Positions 7,120 to 36,844 of a DNA stretch of 64,000 nt are shown piece by piece (position 1 is the stretch's first letter; each line of letters starts with the position of its first letter). This DNA is from an uncultured Azospirillaceae bacterium. Its GTDB lineage: Bacteria; Pseudomonadota; Alphaproteobacteria; RF32; CAG-239. A model generated the notes under the pieces. The model saw nothing but the letters and a program-made list of their open reading frames with translations. It was not told the origin of the DNA and made no database searches. Both the position numbers and the translations under genes were made by a program. Where the stretch lies: contig CAYPFN010000004.1 in NCBI GenBank assembly GCA_964410325.1, positions 1,486 to 65,485 of the forward strand, given 5' to 3'.

Positions 7120-8187
7120 TTAGTTCTGTTCTTTTTGTGACTTTAGTTGCCCGCAGGCCGCTAAAATATCTTGTCCGCGTGCCACACGCACCGGAGCGGC
7201 AAAACCTGATTTTTCCAGAATATTGGCAAAAGCCTCGATGTTTTTATCAGAACTCGGTTTAAAACTGCATCCCGGCCAAGGATTAAAAGGTATCAGGTTA
7301 AAAGAAGCGCGAATTTTGTATTTTTTCATTAAAACCGTTAATTCTCGGGCATGTTCCAGAGAATCGTTTATTCCGTCCAGCATTAAATATTCAAAAGTAA
7401 TGTAGCGGCTGCCATCGATTTCCTGATATTTCTGGCAAGCTTTTAAAATTTCTTCTATCGGATAACGGTCATTTATCGGCATAATTTGTGAACGAATCCG
7501 ATTGTTCGGTGCATGCAGTGAAACTGCCAGGCGGACGCCCGTGGCTTTTAAAACAGGTACAATTTTCGGAACAATGCCAGAAGTTGACATTGTTACTCGC
7601 CGGCGGGATATGGCAATGCCATCACCGTCAGTTAAAATATTTAGAGCTTTGATAATATTATCCGGATTATGCAACGGCTCACCCATGCCCATAACGACAA
7701 TATTTGACAGATAGCGTATTTCATCGGTTGGACTCGGCCATTCGCCGTAAGTATCGCGCGCCACCATAAATTGACCGACTATTTCGCCAGCCGTTAGATT
7801 CCTCGTCAATTTTTGGCTACCAGTATGGCAAAATCTGCAACCGACAGCACAGCCTACTTGAGTAGATATACACACGGTACCCCGATCGTTTTCCGGAATA
7901 TAAACCATTTCTACCCTTTGGCCGTCTTGAAATTCCAGCAGCCATTTGCGGGTTTTGTCTTTAGAAAGCTGTTCGGCGATAATTTTCGGACGGGTAATTA
8001 TAAAATTATCTTTAAGCTTTTGGCGCAGCTCCTTAGCAAGATTTGTCATCTTGTCAAAATCGGTTTCACCGTGGAAATACAGCCATTGCCAGAGTTGTTT
8101 GGCGCGAAACGGTTTTTCTCCGATTTTTGCAAGCAGTCGTTCTAGTTCGACTTTGCTTAACTCTGTCAGTTCAATTTTTTCAGCCAT
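7120..8187 (-). CDS. rlmN: 23S rRNA/tRNA adenine C2-methyltransferase, radical SAM
   Basis: 355 aa. Radical-SAM CxxxCxxC (CAVGCRFC), GMGEPL motif and a C-terminal CGQL. Confidence 0.85.
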   Translation of the reverse strand: MAEKIELTELSKVELERLLAKIGEKPFRAKQLWQWLYFHGETDFDKMTNLAKELRQKLKDNFIITRPKIIAEQLSKDKTRKWLLEFQDGQRVEMVYIPENDRGTVCISTQVGCAVGCRFCHTGSQKLTRNLTAGEIVGQFMVARDTYGEWPSPTDEIRYLSNIVVMGMGEPLHNPDNIIKALNILTDGDGIAISRRRVTMSTSGIVPKIVPVLKATGVRLAVSLHAPNNRIRSQIMPINDRYPIEEILKACQKYQEIDGSRYITFEYLMLDGINDSLEHARELTVLMKKYKIRASFNLIPFNPWPGCSFKPSSDKNIEAFANILEKSGFAAPVRVARGQDILAACGQLKSQKEQN

Positions 8188-8205
8188 TATTTTACGCCGT
8201 TCATG

Positions 8206-17880: not shown

Positions 17881-18052
17881 GTTTACCTCGTAAAATTTAG
17901 TTTAAAATAATGCATATGTATTAATAAAATTATAAATTTCCAATTTTTTGGGCACATAATGACTTTTTATTATTTTTTAATAGTTACACTATAAACTAAT
18001 TAAAATTCGTTTGTACAAACATTTAATAAAGCGGTTTTTCGAAGAGGAATTT

Positions 18053-18721
18053 ATGAAAAAACTGATTATATGGGATTTTGATGGCGTTATTGCTGATACT
18101 GAAAAATTATGGTTAAAAAATAGACAGATTCTTATGAAGGAAAGTTTAGGCATTGATTGGGACTGGCAAACAGTCAACCACTATCTACGCGGCATGGGTG
18201 ATAAAACCAAAAGAGACGTTCTTGATAATCTAGGCATTGTCACCGATAATGCCTTTTGGGATAAAATCATTGCCATGGATGTTGAAACGATGCAAACAGA
18301 AGGTTTTGAATTAACTGATGGAATCGAACAAATTTTTAAAATGAACAATATTAAGCAATGTATAGCCACTGGTGGTGTTAAAAATAAAACATCTTTAAAA
18401 ATTGATATCACCGGCATTCGTAAATATTTTCCCGATAATCACGTTTTTACAGTTGATATGGTAAAATACGGCAAACCAGAACCTGATTTATTTTTACTTG
18501 CCACTGAAAAAATGGGAGAAAAACCGCAAGATGCTGTAGTTATTGAAGATTCTATCGCTGGTTTAACAGCAGCAATCAAAGCAGGTTGTCTACCTATTGC
18601 TTTTCTAGCAGGAGATTTAGTTGGAAACGATATTCATTTTAACCAGGTTAAAAAACTTGGTGTCAAATATATAACTCATGATATGCAAACTTTAAAAAAA
18701 CTTATTCTTGAGTTGTTTTAG
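18053..18721 (+). CDS. HAD-superfamily hydrolase (phosphatase/beta-phosphoglucomutase-like)
   Basis: The DxD motif IIWDFDGVIADT lies immediately after the internal Met. The track ORF starts at 18011. Confidence 0.6.
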   Translation: MKKLIIWDFDGVIADTEKLWLKNRQILMKESLGIDWDWQTVNHYLRGMGDKTKRDVLDNLGIVTDNAFWDKIIAMDVETMQTEGFELTDGIEQIFKMNNIKQCIATGGVKNKTSLKIDITGIRKYFPDNHVFTVDMVKYGKPEPDLFLLATEKMGEKPQDAVVIEDSIAGLTAAIKAGCLPIAFLAGDLVGNDIHFNQVKKLGVKYITHDMQTLKKLILELF

Positions 18722-19418
18722 CTGATTCATTAAATTTTAACCAGACGGCATTCTTTAGCTTTTCTTTTAAAAATTTTTCATGTGTTTCAATTTCTTGCGC
18801 GGTTAAGAGAAAAGATCTTGGTTCGAGATATGTTTTGTTTTCAATCTTTTGAACAGAATTAATTTTAATTTCATCATCAGGTGTCAAACTCATTGTCGGT
18901 TCAGCACCTCCCAAAAGTTCAAGATAAACCTCAGATAAAAGTTCAGCGTCAAGCAAAGCACCATGTTTAGTACGGGCTGAATTATCTATATTAAAACGAC
19001 GGCATAAAGCATCAAGATTGTTTCTAGCGCCGGGAAATTTATTACGAGCAATTTCAAGCGTATCCACAACTCTTTCCCAAGGATAAGTATTAAAGCCTAA
19101 ATGTTTGAATTCATAATTAATAAAACGTATATCAAAAGAAGCATTATGAGCGACTAAGATACCATCATCACCTACAAAATTTATAAAATCCTGTGCTACT
19201 TCCGATAACTTCGGATAATTTTTCAAAAATTCTTCCGTAAGGCCATGGACTTTGACCACCTCTTCAGGTACATTGCGCCCTGGATTTATATATTGGTGAT
19301 AAGTACGTCCAGTTGGCAAATGATTTATCAGTTCAACAGCGCCAATTTCTACTAATTTATCGCCTTCTTCAGGGTTTAATCCTGTTGTCTCCGTATCAAA
19401 AACAATTTCTCTTAACAT
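18702..19418 (-). CDS. dnaQ: DNA polymerase III epsilon subunit (3'-5' exonuclease)
   Basis: 238 aa. Exo I FDTETTG, Exo II VAHNASFD, Exo III HGALLDAELL. Confidence 0.85.
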   Translation of the reverse strand: MLREIVFDTETTGLNPEEGDKLVEIGAVELINHLPTGRTYHQYINPGRNVPEEVVKVHGLTEEFLKNYPKLSEVAQDFINFVGDDGILVAHNASFDIRFINYEFKHLGFNTYPWERVVDTLEIARNKFPGARNNLDALCRRFNIDNSARTKHGALLDAELLSEVYLELLGGAEPTMSLTPDDEIKINSVQKIENKTYLEPRSFLLTAQEIETHEKFLKEKLKNAVWLKFNESAKTTQE

Positions 19419-20014
19419 TTTTCAAATCCGTTTATAATTTCAATCAAATCTGCTTTCAGGCATCCGATAGGTTTATCTGTCGATACAACAAAATCAGCCA
19501 TATTTATGCGAATACGGTTAGGCATTTGCATCTTCAAAATATTATCAAAGTCAATTTCAGAAATATTATCACGCATCATTACTCTGTGTTTCTGAATTTC
19601 ATAAGGAACTTCAGCAACAATGACATCCGTGCAATATTGTTCCCACCCCATTTCAAACAATAAAGCAACATCAATAAAAATAATATTATCATGCCGGCTG
19701 TTTTTATGAATAACATCTAAAAACTTTCGTTTTAAAAACGGATGTATCATTTTTTCTAATTTTTGCAATTCCAAACGGCTGTTAAAAACATGATTACGCA
19801 AAATCCTTTTATTAAAAATGCCGTTTTCCCAACAAAAAGGAAATATTTCACGAATTTTTTGCAGAAAATCAGCTTCAAAATAAAGCTCGCGACACCACTT
19901 ATCAACATCATAAACAACAAATCCGAGTTTTCTGATAATGCCGGCAATGGTAGTTTTGCCACAGCCAATAGCGCCCGTTATTGCAATAATATGCATTTTT
20001 ATATTTCCTATCAA
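19412..20014 (-). CDS. coaE: Dephospho-CoA kinase
   Basis: P-loop ITGAIGCGKTT near the N-terminus. The true start may be the internal Met at about 19996. Confidence 0.8.
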   Translation of the reverse strand: MIGNIKMHIIAITGAIGCGKTTIAGIIRKLGFVVYDVDKWCRELYFEADFLQKIREIFPFCWENGIFNKRILRNHVFNSRLELQKLEKMIHPFLKRKFLDVIHKNSRHDNIIFIDVALLFEMGWEQYCTDVIVAEVPYEIQKHRVMMRDNISEIDFDNILKMQMPNRIRINMADFVVSTDKPIGCLKADLIEIINGFEKC

Positions 20015-31029: not shown

Positions 31030-31725
31030 ATGAGAGAAAAGATGCCGGACGCAAATTTGAATATAACTGGATTGAAAACAGCGGTTTTTGATTGGGACAA
31101 TACTTTGGCTGAAAGCCGAAGCACGCTTGTTTATGCCATTAATCAGGTTTTGTCGCAATATGGCTTGGAAGAATGGGATATAGTGAAAAAGAAAAGAGAT
31201 AATAATCTCTCGTTTAGAGATAATTTTCTCCGTATTTTTGGCGATAAAGCAGAAGAAGCTTATGATCGGTATACGAAAATTTACTTGCAAAATGTTAGCC
31301 AGATAATTACGGCGTTTCCAAAAACGCACGAGGTTTTGGCGTTTTTTAAGCAAAACGGAATTTCTGTTATGATTATGACTAATAAAGACAGAGTTTTGTT
31401 TGATTATGAACTTCCTTTATTATTTAATCCTGATATTTTTGACAATATTGTCTGTGGTCATGAAGCGGAAGAGGATAAGCCTTATGCGGGACATTTGATA
31501 TGGACGGTAAAAGGTGTTTTGAATTCGGAACAAATCAGTCCGACAAGTGTATGGGTTATTGGCGATAGTCCGCAGGACAGCGCATGCGCACGCGCTGCTG
31601 GCGCTAGGCCTATACGTATAGGGAAACCAATATGGGGAAATGAAAACGAACAAGAAACAGGAATTTGTTTTTTTGATTCATTTGTGGATTTTTATCAGAG
31701 TTTGCTTTTATCGAATCCAAAATAG
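31030..31725 (+). CDS. HAD-superfamily phosphatase
   Basis: DxD motif VFDWDNTL, motif III near the K, and a C-terminal GDSPQD. Confidence 0.6.
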   Translation: MREKMPDANLNITGLKTAVFDWDNTLAESRSTLVYAINQVLSQYGLEEWDIVKKKRDNNLSFRDNFLRIFGDKAEEAYDRYTKIYLQNVSQIITAFPKTHEVLAFFKQNGISVMIMTNKDRVLFDYELPLLFNPDIFDNIVCGHEAEEDKPYAGHLIWTVKGVLNSEQISPTSVWVIGDSPQDSACARAAGARPIRIGKPIWGNENEQETGICFFDSFVDFYQSLLLSNPK

Positions 31726-31750: not shown

Positions 31751-32944
31751 TTGAATGTAGCAAATATGGCTTTAAATAACCCTAAAGAATTGTATTTAAA
31801 AATTTTTAAAAGAGTAACAATCATTGTTTTACTTTTAGTGATTATGGTTGCTAATATTCATGAATTTAAGCGTCTGGTTTCAACGAATCCTGAAAAAATA
31901 ACGGAATATCAGTCGCCAAGAGATATTTATGCAGAAATTAGAAATCCAGTTATATTGATTACATATTATACGGTTTCAGATAAAATGCCGAAAATCGCCA
32001 TTTTGCCGGAACAACATTTTGATAATGTGATACAGAGCTTGGGTAAAAATTTTAAAAAAGGACAGATACAGAAGATTTTTATAGGGATGCTAGCTGGTGT
32101 AGCAAAAGAGAAGGTTGATTTTTTTAATAAAGAAGATTTATTTGATGGCGTGCCTTTCAAAATTTTTACAGATCAAGATATTTTACAATCAAAGCAAAAA
32201 GATTTTGTCTCTCTGCTTGAAACTGATAGAAATTTTCTAATTTTAATCGGAAATTTAAAAGATGATAAGTTTGCCGAAATGTTAAAAATGGTGGAAACAA
32301 CGGCGGTTAATTTGAATTTACGGCCGGTGGCCAAAGATTTATTAGCCATCCAGAAAGTTTTTTTAGAGAAAAAGAGCCAAGGTTTAGATACTTTGAATTT
32401 GGAACAACAGTATGCTAATTTAGAGACGTTTATTAAAGATCAGCAAGAATCATTACAGAAGTTGATAAAACAAGCCTTAGATAATGATTTAGATAATGTT
32501 GGGGAAATTAAAAAGAACAGGCATTTTGATGATAAGGCCGCTGTTTATGTTTTAGCTGTTTCCGAAGAAGAAAATTTATTTCGGGAATATGGAGAGGTGA
32601 GTTTTGAAAAATCTGTTGCTAAGGGGATTTCTTTTTATGTTGCGGAAGCAAAAAAAGACTTTCCGGAATCTGATATAAAGATTTTTCTGTTAACAGAAAG
32701 CGAACGGAAAAATTATGCCGATGAAAAAGAATTCGAAGCGGCTTTGCAAAGAGGATACGGCATTGTTTTGACAGTTGGGAATAGAAGAGGTATTTTATTG
32801 CCCTGTTTTTGGGAAACATACCCGAATAAGAAAGAATTTATTAAACAATTAAAAATAAAATCGGGAATAAGTCCAGATTATTGGTCAGAAGAAATAAATA
32901 TTTATTATTTTAAAGCCGCGGAGATACCATATCATGAAAATTGA
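31751..32944 (+). CDS. Membrane-anchored hypothetical protein with AMMECR1-like C-terminal segment (397 aa)
   Basis: N-terminal TM VTIIVLLLVIMVANI. The C-terminal ..GNRRGILLPCFWE..KEFIKQLKIKSGI loosely resembles the AMMECR1 C-terminal consensus. Overlaps the next gene by 11 nt. Confidence 0.4.
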   Translation: MNVANMALNNPKELYLKIFKRVTIIVLLLVIMVANIHEFKRLVSTNPEKITEYQSPRDIYAEIRNPVILITYYTVSDKMPKIAILPEQHFDNVIQSLGKNFKKGQIQKIFIGMLAGVAKEKVDFFNKEDLFDGVPFKIFTDQDILQSKQKDFVSLLETDRNFLILIGNLKDDKFAEMLKMVETTAVNLNLRPVAKDLLAIQKVFLEKKSQGLDTLNLEQQYANLETFIKDQQESLQKLIKQALDNDLDNVGEIKKNRHFDDKAAVYVLAVSEEENLFREYGEVSFEKSVAKGISFYVAEAKKDFPESDIKIFLLTESERKNYADEKEFEAALQRGYGIVLTVGNRRGILLPCFWETYPNKKEFIKQLKIKSGISPDYWSEEINIYYFKAAEIPYHEN

Positions 32945-34652
32945 CGGATATGAATTAAACTTTAGTGAAGAACAGCTTGATTTTATATTAAGTAAAAAAA
33001 CACGCACAGTTGAATTGATATCTAAAGATTTTGAAGGTTATCAAAATCTGCCGGCAGGGGATAAAAAAGCAATTGAGCATTTGATTAATGCCGCAAACAT
33101 GATTAATGATGTTGCTTTAGAACAAGACCATCCGTTAAATTTACGCTTAAAGAAAGGGCTGGAAAGCGCTTTCTTAAAGAGTTCTTGGGCAGGAAAAGCT
33201 TTAGAGCTTTTTAATAGTTTGAACGGTGTTATAGGGTTTAATGGCATAGACAGAGAGCCTATACGAATTTTTAAAGAAGTCAGTTTGTTGCCAGGGAGAA
33301 ATTTTTATCCAGAAGATTTATCTGTTGAAGAATTTCATCGTATTCTTATTACGATGGGAAACAGAGGAGAAATTGATAAAATTCGAAAAATTTTATCAGC
33401 TCGAACAATGGTTCGCCGCCAAGGCGATAGCTTAAAAGCGATAGATTATACCGAGTATTTTTCAGAGGCTTTTTCCGATATTGCCAATGAGTTGGAAGCG
33501 GCCGCATATTATTGTACGGAACAGGAGTTTAAAGATTATCTTGGCTGGCAGGTTCAGGCGCTGTTGCAAAATAATCCAGATATGGATATGCTGGCGGATA
33601 AACATTGGGCAAAATTGCAAAATACTAATTTAGAATTTACGATTTCCAGAGAAAATTATGAAGATGAAATAAGCGGGACGGTTTATAATAATCCAGAACT
33701 TATTAAGATTCTTGAAGAAAATAATATTCATGTGGTAGCCAAAGACACATTCGGCTGCCGGGTTGGTATTGTCAACAAACCAGCAACAGAAGATATTCTA
33801 TTATCGAAAAAAATGCTACCGATCCTTGCCAAATGGATGCCTTATAATGAACAGTATACACAAGATAACGTTGATGAAGAAAATTTGCGGCAAAGCATGG
33901 TTGATGTTGATTTAATTGCCTTAACCGGCGATTATGCCATGTGCCGTGGCGGAATTACAGCGGCGCAGAATTTGCCGAATAACGATAAAATTTCTGTGCA
34001 AACTGGTGGTGGACGGCGCAATGTTTATCATCGGCAGGTGCGCTTTAGCACAGATGAAGAAAGAGATAAAAAGCTTTTGGATAAGTTGGTGGATCCCGCT
34101 TTGCATACATATGTTGATAAGTCAAAAGTGATTGTTTTTGTGGTAGGACATGAAAATGGCCATTCTCTTGGTCCGGGAAGTGTTTATCAGAATTCTTTAG
34201 GCATGTATAAGCATATAATTGAAGAGCATAAGGCAAACGTTGTTTCCATTGCTTCAATTACAGAAGCGGCAAAGCAAGGAGCAAATTTTGATAGGGAAAC
34301 ATTGCGCAAGATTTATACGTCTTGGATTGTCGGAAATTTATTTTTGCGGGCCAAACCTCTTTTATCACAAGCGCACAGGGTGGCTGATTTGATAGAATTT
34401 AATTATTTATTGGAAAGTAAAGCCATTTGGTTTGATGATATGAAAAAAATTCATATTGATTTTGATATTATCAATATGACAATGTATAAATTGTTAGAGG
34501 AAACTATACGAGTACAGCTTTCAAAATCTGTAGAAACAGCCAGTGAATTTATCAATCGTTGGGCAATATGGGGAGAATGGTCACGGTATATCGCTGAAAT
34601 ACAACAATCGTTAGGCGTTAAACCTTATATAAAAATTATAACTAAATTTTAA
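32934..34652 (+). CDS. Hypothetical 572-aa protein with HExxH motif (possible zinc metallopeptidase, M49/DPP-III-like?)
   Basis: VFVVGHENGHSLGPGS contains HENGH. A downstream IIEEHKA is weakly reminiscent of the M49 second motif, but the spacing differs. Confidence 0.45.
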   Translation: MKIDGYELNFSEEQLDFILSKKTRTVELISKDFEGYQNLPAGDKKAIEHLINAANMINDVALEQDHPLNLRLKKGLESAFLKSSWAGKALELFNSLNGVIGFNGIDREPIRIFKEVSLLPGRNFYPEDLSVEEFHRILITMGNRGEIDKIRKILSARTMVRRQGDSLKAIDYTEYFSEAFSDIANELEAAAYYCTEQEFKDYLGWQVQALLQNNPDMDMLADKHWAKLQNTNLEFTISRENYEDEISGTVYNNPELIKILEENNIHVVAKDTFGCRVGIVNKPATEDILLSKKMLPILAKWMPYNEQYTQDNVDEENLRQSMVDVDLIALTGDYAMCRGGITAAQNLPNNDKISVQTGGGRRNVYHRQVRFSTDEERDKKLLDKLVDPALHTYVDKSKVIVFVVGHENGHSLGPGSVYQNSLGMYKHIIEEHKANVVSIASITEAAKQGANFDRETLRKIYTSWIVGNLFLRAKPLLSQAHRVADLIEFNYLLESKAIWFDDMKKIHIDFDIINMTMYKLLEETIRVQLSKSVETASEFINRWAIWGEWSRYIAEIQQSLGVKPYIKIITKF

Positions 34653-34682: not shown

Positions 34683-35057
34683 ATGAAAATGTTTGGTAAT
34701 TTAGTTTATGGTAAATTTTCCTTAAAAGAAACGTTTTGGAAATTTGGCGTTCTCGGTGTTTTTTTCTGTGCTTTGGTTACAAGAATTTTTAAGGCTTTTT
34801 TGATGCAGGCACTAAATGGTGCTACTATTACTTATTACTATACACATTATTTCTCACCGCTTGCAATGGATGGCAAGATTTTGTTTTTAACAATCGGGTA
34901 TTTTGTGTGTTTTGCGGCTTTATGCCTTTATTCAATAATGGTTTTGTTTGGTATTTGGCGGAGTTCTGCGGAATACGATAAAAGCATTTGGTTGCGTCAT
35001 ATTGCTAGAATAATGATGTTTCTGATGGTTTATCTTGGTGTAAAATTTGTATTATAG
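34683..35057 (+). CDS. Small membrane protein, hypothetical (124 aa)
   Basis: 3-4 predicted TM helices. No motif. Confidence 0.35.
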   Translation: MKMFGNLVYGKFSLKETFWKFGVLGVFFCALVTRIFKAFLMQALNGATITYYYTHYFSPLAMDGKILFLTIGYFVCFAALCLYSIMVLFGIWRSSAEYDKSIWLRHIARIMMFLMVYLGVKFVL

Positions 35058-35066
35058 GGTGGACAT

Positions 35067-35222
35067 ATGAAAAAATTTATTTTGTTGTTTTTGCTATTTT
35101 TAATAGGGTGTGTTGTTGCTGGAGATTTTTCCGAAGACAGGAATCGGTTGCATGAACTTGGCCGGGATGAGGCTTATTGCCAGAAAAATCCTGATCGTTG
35201 TGTTAACGGCATTCCTTGGTAA
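35067..35222 (+). CDS. Small lipoprotein candidate (51 aa), not in ORF track
   Basis: MKKFILLFLLFLIGCVV.. carries an LIGC lipobox. An AGGGTGG Shine-Dalgarno lies 6 nt upstream, and a hairpin terminator follows at 35236-35264. Confidence 0.35.
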   Translation: MKKFILLFLLFLIGCVVAGDFSEDRNRLHELGRDEAYCQKNPDRCVNGIPW

Positions 35223-35235
35223 TTGTTTGAAGAGA

Positions 35236-35264
35236 AAAAATCCGCAGTTAAAGCGGATTTTTTA
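35236..35264 (+). terminator. Rho-independent terminator
   Basis: aaaaatccgc agttaaa gcggattttt. Confidence 0.55.
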
Positions 35265-35342: not shown

Positions 35343-36140
35343 TTATTTTACAGCTTTTTTCTTATCATATAAAAATTTGATAATCCCCAGTGGAATTGAT
35401 AAAGCATAAAGTCCGGTCATAATACCTAATGTAAGCCAGGGTTGTGTAATCATAAAATGAATAAACAATACGACAAACAGCATTAAAGGTAGCATCATAT
35501 ATGTTTGTACTTTAAGCTTTTTTAATGAAATGGTGGGTATACGACTAACCATTAAAAAAGTAATGATAAACATCATAATGCCACAAAAGGCATTAGACTG
35601 TAAAACGATAGCAGCTTGCGGAAAATGGAAACAAATCAGCAAAGGCATGATAGCTAAGGCCGCGGCGGCTGGTGCTGGTACGCCGACAAAATAATGCGAC
35701 CAGTATTCAGGCTGATCATCATCAAGCATAGTGTTAAAACGTGCTAAGCGCATGGCCATACCCATAGCAAATAACAAACAGAAAAACCAGCCGAATTTAG
35801 GCAAATCAAACAAAGTCCATTGATATATTAAGATTGCGGGCGCAACGCCGAAACTGACAAAATCGGAAAGCGAATCTAGTTCGGCGCCGAATTTGGAGGA
35901 GGCTTTCAAAAATCTGGCAACACGACCGTCCAGACCATCAAATAAAGCGGCCAGAAAGATACAAAGTACGGCTTTAATCCAATCATCTATAATTGCATAG
36001 CGAATCGATGTTACACCAGAACAAAGCGCCATCATCGTTAAAATATTCGGCACTAGTTTACGAAAAGGAACCTCTTTAAATTTTTGTTTAGATATGAGTA
36101 TCCGGTTGTTGATGTTTTTAACTTTATGAATGTTTCTCAT
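35343..36140 (-). CDS. pssA: CDP-diacylglycerol--serine O-phosphatidyltransferase
   Basis: 265 aa. CDP-alcohol phosphatidyltransferase motif DGLDGRVAR..G..D..D. Confidence 0.8.
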   Translation of the reverse strand: MRNIHKVKNINNRILISKQKFKEVPFRKLVPNILTMMALCSGVTSIRYAIIDDWIKAVLCIFLAALFDGLDGRVARFLKASSKFGAELDSLSDFVSFGVAPAILIYQWTLFDLPKFGWFFCLLFAMGMAMRLARFNTMLDDDQPEYWSHYFVGVPAPAAAALAIMPLLICFHFPQAAIVLQSNAFCGIMMFIITFLMVSRIPTISLKKLKVQTYMMLPLMLFVVLFIHFMITQPWLTLGIMTGLYALSIPLGIIKFLYDKKKAVK

Positions 36141-36844
36141 TTAACAACTCCTTCTACTCTTGGTGCATCAGATTTCAGATTTGCTAAAATTGTTTCGCCG
36201 GCGACCATGGTTTGACCAATGCATACCTGAGGTTCAATATCGGTTGGCAGATAAACGTCCAGACGGGAACCAAAACGAATAAGCCCGAATCTTTCACCAG
36301 CCTGATATTGTTGTCCATCGCGGGCAAAGCAGATAATTCGACGAGCGACCAAACCGGCAATCTGCACAAAGGCGATTTCTTTGCCGCAGTCTGTGCGCAT
36401 GGCAAGCAGCTGTCGTTCATTATCTTTGCTGGCTTTGTCAAGCGTTGCATTAAAAAATTTGCCTTTGATATAAGCCTTTCTGATAATTTTGCCAGATGCT
36501 GGCGCACGATTAACGTGGACATTAAACACGCTCATAAAAATGCTTATGCGATTGAATGTTTTATTGTTCATACCCAGTTCTTCAGGGCCGGTTACGCGGG
36601 TAATCATTTGAACAATGCCATCAGCTGGGGAAACGACTACATCTTTTATCTGTGGCGTAACGCGTTCAGGGTCACGGAAGAAATAATAGCACCAGATAGT
36701 TAAAATTAATCCGACAATACCCAAAGGAAGCCAGATAATTGCCAGCAACGCTGTTGCCGCTGCAAAAATGCTGATAAAGCGCCACCCTTCGTTATTAATG
36801 TTTGGAAAAATATATCTTTGGAAAGAAAGATTAACGTTTTTCAT
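36137..36844 (-). CDS. psd: Phosphatidylserine decarboxylase proenzyme
   Basis: 235 aa. A C-terminal GST-type cleavage region (RFGSR) and a conserved core. Overlaps pssA by 4 nt. Confidence 0.85.
   Translation of the reverse strand: MKNVNLSFQRYIFPNINNEGWRFISIFAAATALLAIIWLPLGIVGLILTIWCYYFFRDPERVTPQIKDVVVSPADGIVQMITRVTGPEELGMNNKTFNRISIFMSVFNVHVNRAPASGKIIRKAYIKGKFFNATLDKASKDNERQLLAMRTDCGKEIAFVQIAGLVARRIICFARDGQQYQAGERFGLIRFGSRLDVYLPTDIEPQVCIGQTMVAGETILANLKSDAPRVEGVVK

Follow-up and report, generated by a model that had tools for sequence, protein, structure and literature searches.

An overlapping gene pair in the window

We have analysed a stretch of 64,000 nt from contig CAYPFN010000004.1 of an uncultured Azospirillaceae bacterium (hereafter the window, to which all position numbers refer), and we describe two overlapping genes on its forward strand, ORF1 and ORF2 (Table 1). 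As the earlier sequence-only reading had it, the two genes share 11 nt and stand between a gene for a HAD-superfamily phosphatase and a gene for a small membrane protein. The ORF1 frame runs from a TTG codon at 31751 to 32944 and would encode 397 aa from that codon, but because every homologue begins with MALNN, the start is most likely the ATG at 31766, giving a protein of 392 aa. Neither protein carries a name in any of the database sources checked. For comparison, we used 80 genome loci that hold an ORF2 orthologue; related loci are given L-numbers and homologous proteins P-numbers. The nearest genome records are metagenome-assembled genomes from the guts of humans, chickens, rabbits and ruminants, which bear the names 'uncultured Alphaproteobacteria bacterium', 'Azospirillum sp. 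51_20' and 'Candidatus Scatocola'.

ORF2 as a predicted short-form M49 metallopeptidase

In a phmmer search against PDB sequences, residues 41-553 of ORF2 matched the dipeptidyl peptidase III (DPP III) of Caldithrix abyssi (CaDPP III; 6eom_A, E=5e-23), which is deposited under the name 'MutT/NUDIX family protein', and the second match was the Corallococcus enzyme (CoDPP III; 5zum_A, E=1.7e-4). In these alignments VVGHENGHSLGPG stands opposite LMHEISHGLGPG, and IEEHKANV opposite IEECKADV. ORF2 carries VVGHENGHSLGPGS together with IIEEHKAN, and H410 is separated from E430 by 20 residues. The sequence-only reading had likened HENGH to the HExxGH motif of M49 peptidases with one residue missing, and had pointed to IIEEHKA about 20 residues downstream. 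Both suggestions are borne out, in that HENGH aligns with the HEISH of 6eom and the glutamate pair belongs to the second zinc motif. By analogy with the characterised enzymes, H406 and H410 are predicted to be zinc ligands and E407 the catalytic base, and E431 is the predicted third ligand.

The conservation of these residues was evaluated in two sets, the 80 genome-record orthologues plus the window (n=81) and a wider alignment of 50 sequences with identities as low as 22%. HENGH is invariant in 81/81 orthologues, so that the H, E, H and downstream E named by the sequence-only reading are conserved throughout, and EExKA[D/N/E] occurs in every one. E240, Y242, D244, N349, H406, E407, H410, E430, E431, H481 and N490 are found in 81/81 orthologues and in at least 44/50 of the wider homologues; in that wider set, N349 and E430 are each present in 50/50, E240 and N490 in 48/50, D244 in 46/50 and H481 in 44/50 sequences, HExxH is retained in 48/50, and K433/A434 in 49/50. 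The two homologues that have lost HExxH, P0165 (GYYIGQ) and P0171 (GMNIAQ), possess an N-terminal transmembrane (TM) helix and are apparent membrane-anchored pseudo-peptidases. The last position of the second motif, 435, is D in 70 orthologues, N in 10 and E in 1, with N in the clade of the window. In gluzincins, the Asp of the ExxxD motif hydrogen-bonds a zinc-binding His. The replacement of Asp by Asn at position 435 is a conservative change at what is, by analogy, the corresponding residue.

The AlphaFold2 (AF2) model of ORF2, built from the 50-sequence alignment, showed a mean predicted local distance difference test score (pLDDT) of 94.3 and a predicted template modelling score of 0.92, and adopts the two-domain M49 fold. 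When the model was compared with PDB structures by Foldseek, 6eom was the best match (E=4.5e-28, TM-scores 0.80/0.86) and 5zum the second (0.79/0.85), followed by DPPs III from Bacteroides, human, fungi and yeast (among them 5na8 and 3t6b). The top 17 matches were all DPP III, and not the non-peptidase fold that would have spoken against the assignment. The substrate-strand NLPN and the downstream AH...NY region also align between ORF2 and the short DPPs III.

The Pfam model of the family, PF03571, is matched by 18/50 of the aligned relatives, which are the distant ones (best E=4e-17), and P0227 carries the domain; because these distant relatives are recognised, we consider that the Pfam M49 model is too narrow for the ORF2 branch. 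The link of ORF2 to PF03571 is, at the sequence level, a transitive one, to which the direct phmmer matches to DPPs III in the PDB are added. About 3400 close homologues of ORF2 exist, and those listed all lack a precomputed Pfam domain and are unnamed or called 'hypothetical protein'. No signal peptide was found in ORF2, whereas many of the wider relatives carry lipoprotein or Sec signals.

It could be argued that ORF2 puts the M49 scaffold to a reaction other than peptide hydrolysis, as some proteins of the DPP III fold do. Foldseek also retrieves the Fe2+/pterin-dependent PolE enzymes (9j2e, TMt ~0.6) and an Armillariella protein described as a 'new DPP III family member' (5yfb), the Pfam M49 model passes ORF2 over, and position 435 holds N rather than D or E. 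On the other hand, the zinc, catalytic and substrate-strand residues of the proven DPPs III are all invariant in the orthologues, and the nearest structures by a wide margin are two HEXXH enzymes whose DPP III activity has been confirmed biochemically. We consider a non-peptidase function highly improbable. From sequence and modelled structure, ORF2 is a member of the known short bacterial M49 subgroup, and the kind of peptidase is not new. The 'atypical metallopeptidase' of the sequence-only reading is accordingly kept as an M49/DPP III-type zinc metallopeptidase, while the word atypical is dropped, considering that the short HEXXH subgroup has already been described and solved.

Two side observations concern the relatives of ORF2. 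A sister group (P0142-P0150, loci L086-L165, from gut and rumen) consists of M49 proteins that are ~40% identical, show HEN[ATGV]H and have an Asn/Lys-rich N-terminal extension of ~60 aa. More distant short-M49 homologues adjoin other peptidase genes, standing after an M3 oligopeptidase gene (L167/L168, 2219..3970) or beside an M14 carboxypeptidase gene (L084, 3954..4961); this adjacency is consistent with a role of the family in peptide catabolism.

ORF1 as a decayed Memo-AMMECR1 fusion

The N-terminal membrane anchor that had been proposed for ORF1 is seen both in hydropathy and in the AF2 model (Table 1). A conserved juxtamembrane motif comes next, with N30 invariant and N41 near-invariant. 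At the other end of the protein, the AMMECR1 model PF01871 (cut-off 25 bits) matched with 39.8 bits and E=4.2e-10, although the match takes in only positions 80-166 of the 168 in the model; TIGR04335 scored 64.7 bits, under its cut-off of 99. The predicted structure retains the AMMECR1 fold, with pLDDT >90 over ~residues 300-390. The AMMECR1-like C-terminus reported by the sequence-only reading is thus a significant match, but it is more than a tail, and the whole protein appears to be a decayed fusion of Memo and AMMECR1.

The evidence for this comes from the proteins that occupy the ORF1 position in related loci. In most of the 79 loci these are 515-525 aa long and comprise the TM helix, a full Memo domain and a full AMMECR1 domain. 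Intact fusions of this kind are encoded in about half of the 79 gut and rumen alphaproteobacterial genomes compared. Such intact fusions match PF01875 with E=3e-50 (L011) and 7e-58 (L013) and AMMECR1 with E ~1e-42 to 1e-45, and they match the human MEMO1 and archaeal AMMECR1 structures with E ~1e-21. A hidden Markov model (HMM) of the intact fusions recognises the window ORF1 with E=1.1e-36, over the TM and juxtamembrane part and the whole AMMECR1 region. The window protein aligns end to end with them, 133 of the 521 match columns being deleted, and the losses are unevenly distributed: the strongly conserved columns that survive number 9/55 in Memo, 5/18 in the N-terminal half of AMMECR1 and 22/31 in its C-terminal half.

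The residues that are lost include those of both proposed active sites. The Memo metal-site motifs PHAGY, GPSH, D-L-S-H and CG are present in ~40 loci, and all four are gone from the window clade. In the window ORF1, AVAGxFYP has become VILITYYT and PHAGYxYS has become PEQHFDNV, while GPSH, SADLSH and SCG have disappeared. In the AMMECR1 domain, for which RGChG and DxRa were proposed as the active site (PMC2034487), LRGCIG is replaced by FREYGE, and an 11-residue stretch with DxRF is deleted. The Memo models (PF01875/TIGR04336) gave no match to the window ORF1 in the Pfam and NCBIfam searches, and a homologue search with the ORF1 alignment gave at least 28 matches, with no intact forms among the matches listed.

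In a direct profile comparison, the similarity of the central region of ORF1 to Memo is weak (13.6% at the first cut and 52% after re-cutting). When the comparison proceeds through intermediates, the values are 96% between the window clade and the rumen clade and 97% between the rumen clade and the intact fusions. The Memo homology of the central region is therefore accepted because the intermediates and the flanking regions support descent. Judged from these alignments, the window ORF1 is a decayed TM-Memo-AMMECR1 fusion.

The junction between ORF1 and ORF2

The overlap of the two genes (32934..32944) lies in the sequence GCG GAG ATA CCA TAT CAT GAA AAT TGA, and the Shine-Dalgarno element of ORF2 falls inside ORF1 codons (Table 1). 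Both features are maintained in the relatives. The overlap is exactly 11 nt in 68/78 evaluable related pairs, and in the remainder the genes overlap or abut (-1 to 26 nt); a GGAG-type Shine-Dalgarno sequence lies within ORF1, at most 15 nt upstream of the ORF2 ATG, in 78/78 related pairs. We conclude that the overlap is not a chance feature; it is a translational-coupling junction. An ORF1-like gene was found immediately upstream of the M49 gene in 76/80 loci with a first HMM and in 3 more with a broader HMM, and the 80th locus has no upstream sequence, so that the gene is present in 79/79 loci that can be judged. Outside the clade, a 423-aa protein upstream in L082 was considered as ORF1-like and rejected as unrelated.

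That the two genes occur together inside the clade says little about a shared function, because housekeeping neighbours, the seryl- and tryptophanyl-tRNA synthetase genes (SerRS and TrpRS), are syntenic as well. The fixed overlap is the stronger argument for linkage.

Repeated loss of catalytic motifs in ORF1

When the ORF2 proteins are placed on a neighbour-joining tree, lineages whose ORF1 is without motifs are interspersed with intact ones. They are the window clade (L001-L009), a rumen clade (L045-L078), L040-L052, L062, and L027/34/35/55/68. This interspersion implies at least four independent losses. In every one of these lineages the Memo and AMMECR1 motifs vanish together, and no reading frame is disrupted.

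We estimated the ratio of nonsynonymous to synonymous substitution rates (dN/dS) by the Nei-Gojobori method; synonymous divergence is near saturation, so the values are approximate. For ORF1, dN/dS was 0.34-0.42 in the window clade, 0.08-0.17 in the other motif-less clades and 0.11-0.21 in the intact clades, and for ORF2 it was 0.02-0.09 in all lineages. ORF1 is relaxed yet still under selection, its dN/dS being below 1. Considering that the catalytic residues are lost while purifying selection persists, ORF1 is most likely a pseudoenzyme membrane protein.

A simpler view would be that ORF1 is decaying without any function at the protein level, and that its frame stays open only because the ribosome-binding site and start of ORF2 lie inside it and ORF2 needs its translation. 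The joint loss of the catalytic motifs of both domains in at least four lineages and the large deletions would fit this view, as would an ORF1 dN/dS 4- to 9-fold above that of ORF2 and the comparison of the window with L001, where ORF1 is only 50% identical against 88% for ORF2. However, the ORF1 values of 0.08-0.42 are not near 1, no frameshift or internal stop was found in ORF1 across the 79 loci, and the AF2 model is confident where the AMMECR1 fold is retained. Moreover, the C-terminal 90 residues preserve the 22 of 31 strongly conserved columns mentioned above, which is beyond what the codons of the Shine-Dalgarno sequence and the overlap could explain. We therefore regard a mere decaying leader as very unlikely.

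Neighbouring genes and other features of the locus

The block around the pair has the order SerRS, HAD, ORF1, ORF2, sdaA in some loci, the 3-TM protein and a 51-aa lipoprotein, and its conservation varies. The HAD gene neighbours the pair in 53/80 loci and is missing from the rumen clade. The small 3-TM protein gave no match in family-model searches; it has the conserved pattern TFWKFGV...WRSS..YD.SIWLRH. In ~25 loci (e.g. L013, 7715..9097) an L-serine dehydratase gene (sdaA) stands between the M49 and 3-TM genes, and because it inserts there, the 3-TM gene is separable from the ORF1-ORF2 pair.

The ORF of the 51-aa lipoprotein follows the 3-TM gene directly in ~70/80 loci, and its product shows the motif GDFxExRxxLH...C..xPxRCxxGxPW. 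The first good terminator downstream of the cluster, a strong one, lies past the lipoprotein gene. A promoter scan of the region gave scores no better than those of shuffled sequences. After the cluster, a pssA-psd pair (phosphatidylserine synthase and decarboxylase) is encoded on the opposite strand; because the adjacency was seen only in the 5 loci closest to the window, the pair does not count among the genes of the conserved block. Over the window as a whole, the cumulative GC skew has its minimum at ~18000..20000 with a steady rise after it, and GC content is low (0.31-0.34) at 16-22 kb; this could be an origin-like replication switch or mere gene-strand bias.

Table 1. Positions of the ORF1-ORF2 pair, its elements and its neighbours in the window
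Feature	Position	Strand	Description
ORF1	31766..32944	+	392 aa (397 aa from the alternative TTG start at 31751); degenerate Memo-AMMECR1 fusion with a membrane anchor, probable pseudoenzyme
N-terminal TM helix of ORF1	31802..31864	+	~residues 13-33 by hydropathy; helix 6-38 in the AF2 model
Memo (PF01875) remnant of ORF1	31937..32380	+	~residues 58-205; all metal-site motifs lost, two large deletions
AMMECR1-fold domain of ORF1 (predicted)	32516..32941	+	~residues 251-392; N-terminal half degraded, C-terminal (second RAGNYA) half well conserved
Shine-Dalgarno GGAGA for ORF2	32920..32924	+	inside the ORF1 codons A-E-I; 9 nt before the ATG
Overlap ATGAAAATTGA	32934..32944	+	holds the ORF2 start and the ORF1 stop
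ORF2	32934..34652	+	572 aa; predicted short-form M49 (dipeptidyl-peptidase III family) zinc metallopeptidase
HENGH, predicted zinc motif 1	34149..34163	+	residues 406-410; aligns with H379EISH of CaDPP III
EEHKAN, predicted zinc motif 2	34221..34238	+	residues 430-435; aligns with EECKAD of CaDPP III
HAD-superfamily phosphatase gene	31030..31725	+	directly upstream of ORF1; PF13419, E=2.6e-25
Small 3-TM membrane protein	34683..35057	+	124 aa; downstream of ORF2 in 70/80 loci
Lipoprotein ORF, unlisted	35067..35222	+	51 aa; MKKFILLFLLFLIGC..., lipobox LIGC, two conserved Cys
Terminator	35235..35263		strong
pssA-psd pair	35343..36844	-	phosphatidylserine synthase/decarboxylase

Interpretation of the pair

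Taken together, we consider it probable that ORF2 is an active cytoplasmic exopeptidase of family M49, and that ORF1 is a decayed fusion protein which has been kept as a non-catalytic membrane protein and is translationally coupled to ORF2. We infer the peptidase activity and specificity of ORF2 from CaDPP III, CoDPP III and human DPP III. In its catalytic cycle, Zn2+ would be held by H406 and H410 of HENGH and by E431 of EEHKAN, and E407 would act as the general base that activates water. The peptide may lie along the conserved NLPN strand (N349) in beta-strand form, its free N-terminus being held by the acidic residues E240/D244, and H481 would stabilise the transition state. The two domains would close over the substrate, and a dipeptide would be released from the N-terminus of short oligopeptides. 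The likely role of ORF2 would be the breakdown of short peptides in the cytoplasm, in a peptide-rich gut niche.

As for the history of ORF1, the gene of a TM-anchored Memo-AMMECR1 fusion enzyme was probably put in front of the peptidase gene, and coupled to it, in the common ancestor of these gut and rumen Alphaproteobacteria. In the lineage of the window, roughly a quarter of the ORF1 length has gone, and with it all the predicted catalytic residues of the Memo and AMMECR1 domains. Translation through ORF1 would still deliver ribosomes to the ORF2 start and promote initiation there, and the protein itself may serve a non-enzymatic role as an anchor, a binder or a regulator.

Several observations weigh against this interpretation. 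First, ORF2 found no Pfam or NCBIfam match at E<=1, so that PF03571 was not reached, and the D-to-N change at the end of its second motif is unusual (10/81 orthologues). Second, the pairing is confined to one gut/rumen alphaproteobacterial clade, where SerRS and TrpRS are syntenic too, and it is not phylogenetically independent evidence. Beyond this clade, no Memo or AMMECR1 neighbour was found at 4 outgroup loci, 80 sister-group metagenome loci and 5 more distant loci. The co-occurrence across genomes that the sequence-only reading proposed to examine thus holds for 79/79 loci within the clade and is absent from the 89 outgroup loci. Third, no convergent change was found among 183 highly conserved ORF2 columns in the lineages with a decayed ORF1, and the function of ORF2 therefore seems independent of the catalytic competence of ORF1. 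Finally, in 75 ORF1-like proteins the count of K+R beside the TM helix is 3.2 for the N-terminal flank versus 1.7 for the C-terminal one (the N-terminal flank has more in 55 proteins and fewer in 9), which by the positive-inside rule indicates an N-in/C-out orientation. Accordingly, the Memo/AMMECR1 domains of ORF1 may be periplasmic, away from the leaderless ORF2, although a periplasmic site would be unusual for these families. Mainly because this predicted topology separates the ORF1 domains from ORF2, we put the 'membrane-tethered partner' of the sequence-only reading in conditional terms: the two proteins may be in physical contact.

These same observations bear on the view that the two proteins belong to a two-enzyme pathway, in which the M49 peptidase and the Memo-AMMECR1 protein share a peptide-like substrate at the membrane and the window ORF1 is a substrate-binding or anchoring subunit of an ORF2 complex. 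The coupled pair is strict in all judgeable loci and its junction is identical, there are invariant juxtamembrane Asn residues, and the part of ORF1 that is conserved is the second RAGNYA half, which Balaji and Aravind proposed to form the substrate-contact floor of the cleft (PMC2034487). In addition, there is no radical SAM partner nearby, so the fusions may use another partner. A scan for CxxxCxxC in window ORFs of >=150 aa and in the ORFs of the related loci gave only RlmN-, MiaB- or HydG-like or irrelevant candidates, which were rejected, and no radical SAM gene of the AmmeMemoRadiSam type was found in the 64-kb window or within +-6 kb of the 80 loci. In the window itself the motif occurs only in an RlmN-like ORF (7123-8205) and, C-terminally, in one other ORF. 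The extra gene between the M49 and 3-TM genes was likewise considered as a radical SAM enzyme and rejected, being the L-serine dehydratase. However, the predicted topology sets the ORF1 domains outside the cytoplasm and ORF2 inside it, the pairing is not seen in the outgroup loci, and the constraint and sequence of ORF2 are the same whether ORF1 is intact or dead. We therefore regard a shared pathway as unlikely. A more far-reaching version is that the TM-anchored Memo-AMMECR1 protein has the M49 dipeptidyl peptidase as its dedicated partner in place of a radical SAM enzyme, with a chemistry at the membrane that is directed at peptides or the N-termini of proteins, and that the motif-less ORF1s are pseudoenzyme subunits still binding substrate or peptidase. 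This is speculative, and we think it distinctly unlikely.

Under the preferred reading, a cytoplasmic peptidase coupled to a decayed membrane protein, ORF2 is ordinary as a peptidase, and it brings a large group of uncultured gut/rumen Alphaproteobacteria into the short HEXXH branch of M49, which had been described before. It also points to an annotation gap, in that the Pfam M49 model misses the ORF2 branch and leaves thousands of metagenomic proteins without a Pfam domain. The more interesting side is evolutionary: a membrane-anchored fusion whose gene is joined to a peptidase gene has repeatedly been stripped of the predicted catalytic residues of both domains at once and is nevertheless selected. 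As a natural experiment, the joint loss suggests that Memo and AMMECR1 function together as a single unit, and it suggests a second, non-catalytic role for the ORF1 protein. The interest of ORF1 lies more in its evolution than in its mechanism. A functional link to the peptidase would indicate peptide substrates for the Memo/AMMECR1 system. If an M49 enzyme were truly the partner, the pair would offer a tractable bacterial handle on Memo and AMMECR1, two enigmatic, disease-linked families. We found no description in the literature of the TM-Memo-AMMECR1/M49 pairing or of its repeated joint decay; the literature examined did not cover the Memo gene-context survey, and the novelty is provisional.

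Comparison with known systems

ORF1 is best compared with the AmmeMemoRadiSam system, which comprises AMMECR1 (TIGR04335, protein A), Memo (TIGR04336, protein B) and a radical SAM enzyme, and in which Memo-AMMECR1 gene fusions are known (PMC2034487). On the one hand, the ORF1 orthologues of sister lineages are full Memo and AMMECR1 fusions, and ORF1 itself has the AMMECR1 fold and positional homology along its whole length. On the other hand, ORF1 has an N-terminal TM anchor, the window protein is without the Memo metal-site motifs, RGChG and DxRa and falls under the TIGR04335 cut-off, and its neighbour is an M49 peptidase.

For ORF2, the closest known enzymes are the short bacterial DPPs III. 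Numerous bacterial M49 homologues of ~550 aa have the HEXXGH motif reduced to HEXXH, and CaDPP III was the first of them to be characterised; its zinc is held by both His of HEISH and by the second Glu of EECKAD (PMC5805324). In CoDPP III from Corallococcus sp. EGB, the corresponding motifs are HELMH and EEAKAD, as confirmed by mutagenesis (PMC9820243). Both are biochemically proven DPPs III (PMC5805324, PMC9820243). ORF2 resembles them in its length of about 550-570 aa, in the same two-domain fold and in the HEXXH and EEXKA(D) motifs. It differs in that it is only 16-22% identical to them and goes undetected by PF03571, in its HENGH motif with a shorter, 20-residue spacer to EE, and in the last residue of motif 2, which is N in the ORF2 clade. 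CoDPP III has a signal peptide and was found in the culture supernatant (PMC9820243), whereas ORF2 is leaderless. Moreover, unlike either enzyme, ORF2 is encoded by a gene translationally coupled to a Memo-AMMECR1 gene.

The classical DPPs III of human (DPP3), yeast and Bacteroides thetaiotaomicron, with the motifs HEXXGH and EEXR(K)AE(D), belong to the same family and fold (Foldseek E ~1e-17) and share the zinc-ligand logic of ORF2. Compared with them, ORF2 is ~100-150 residues shorter, has a first zinc motif of five residues where theirs has six, and is 12-14% identical.

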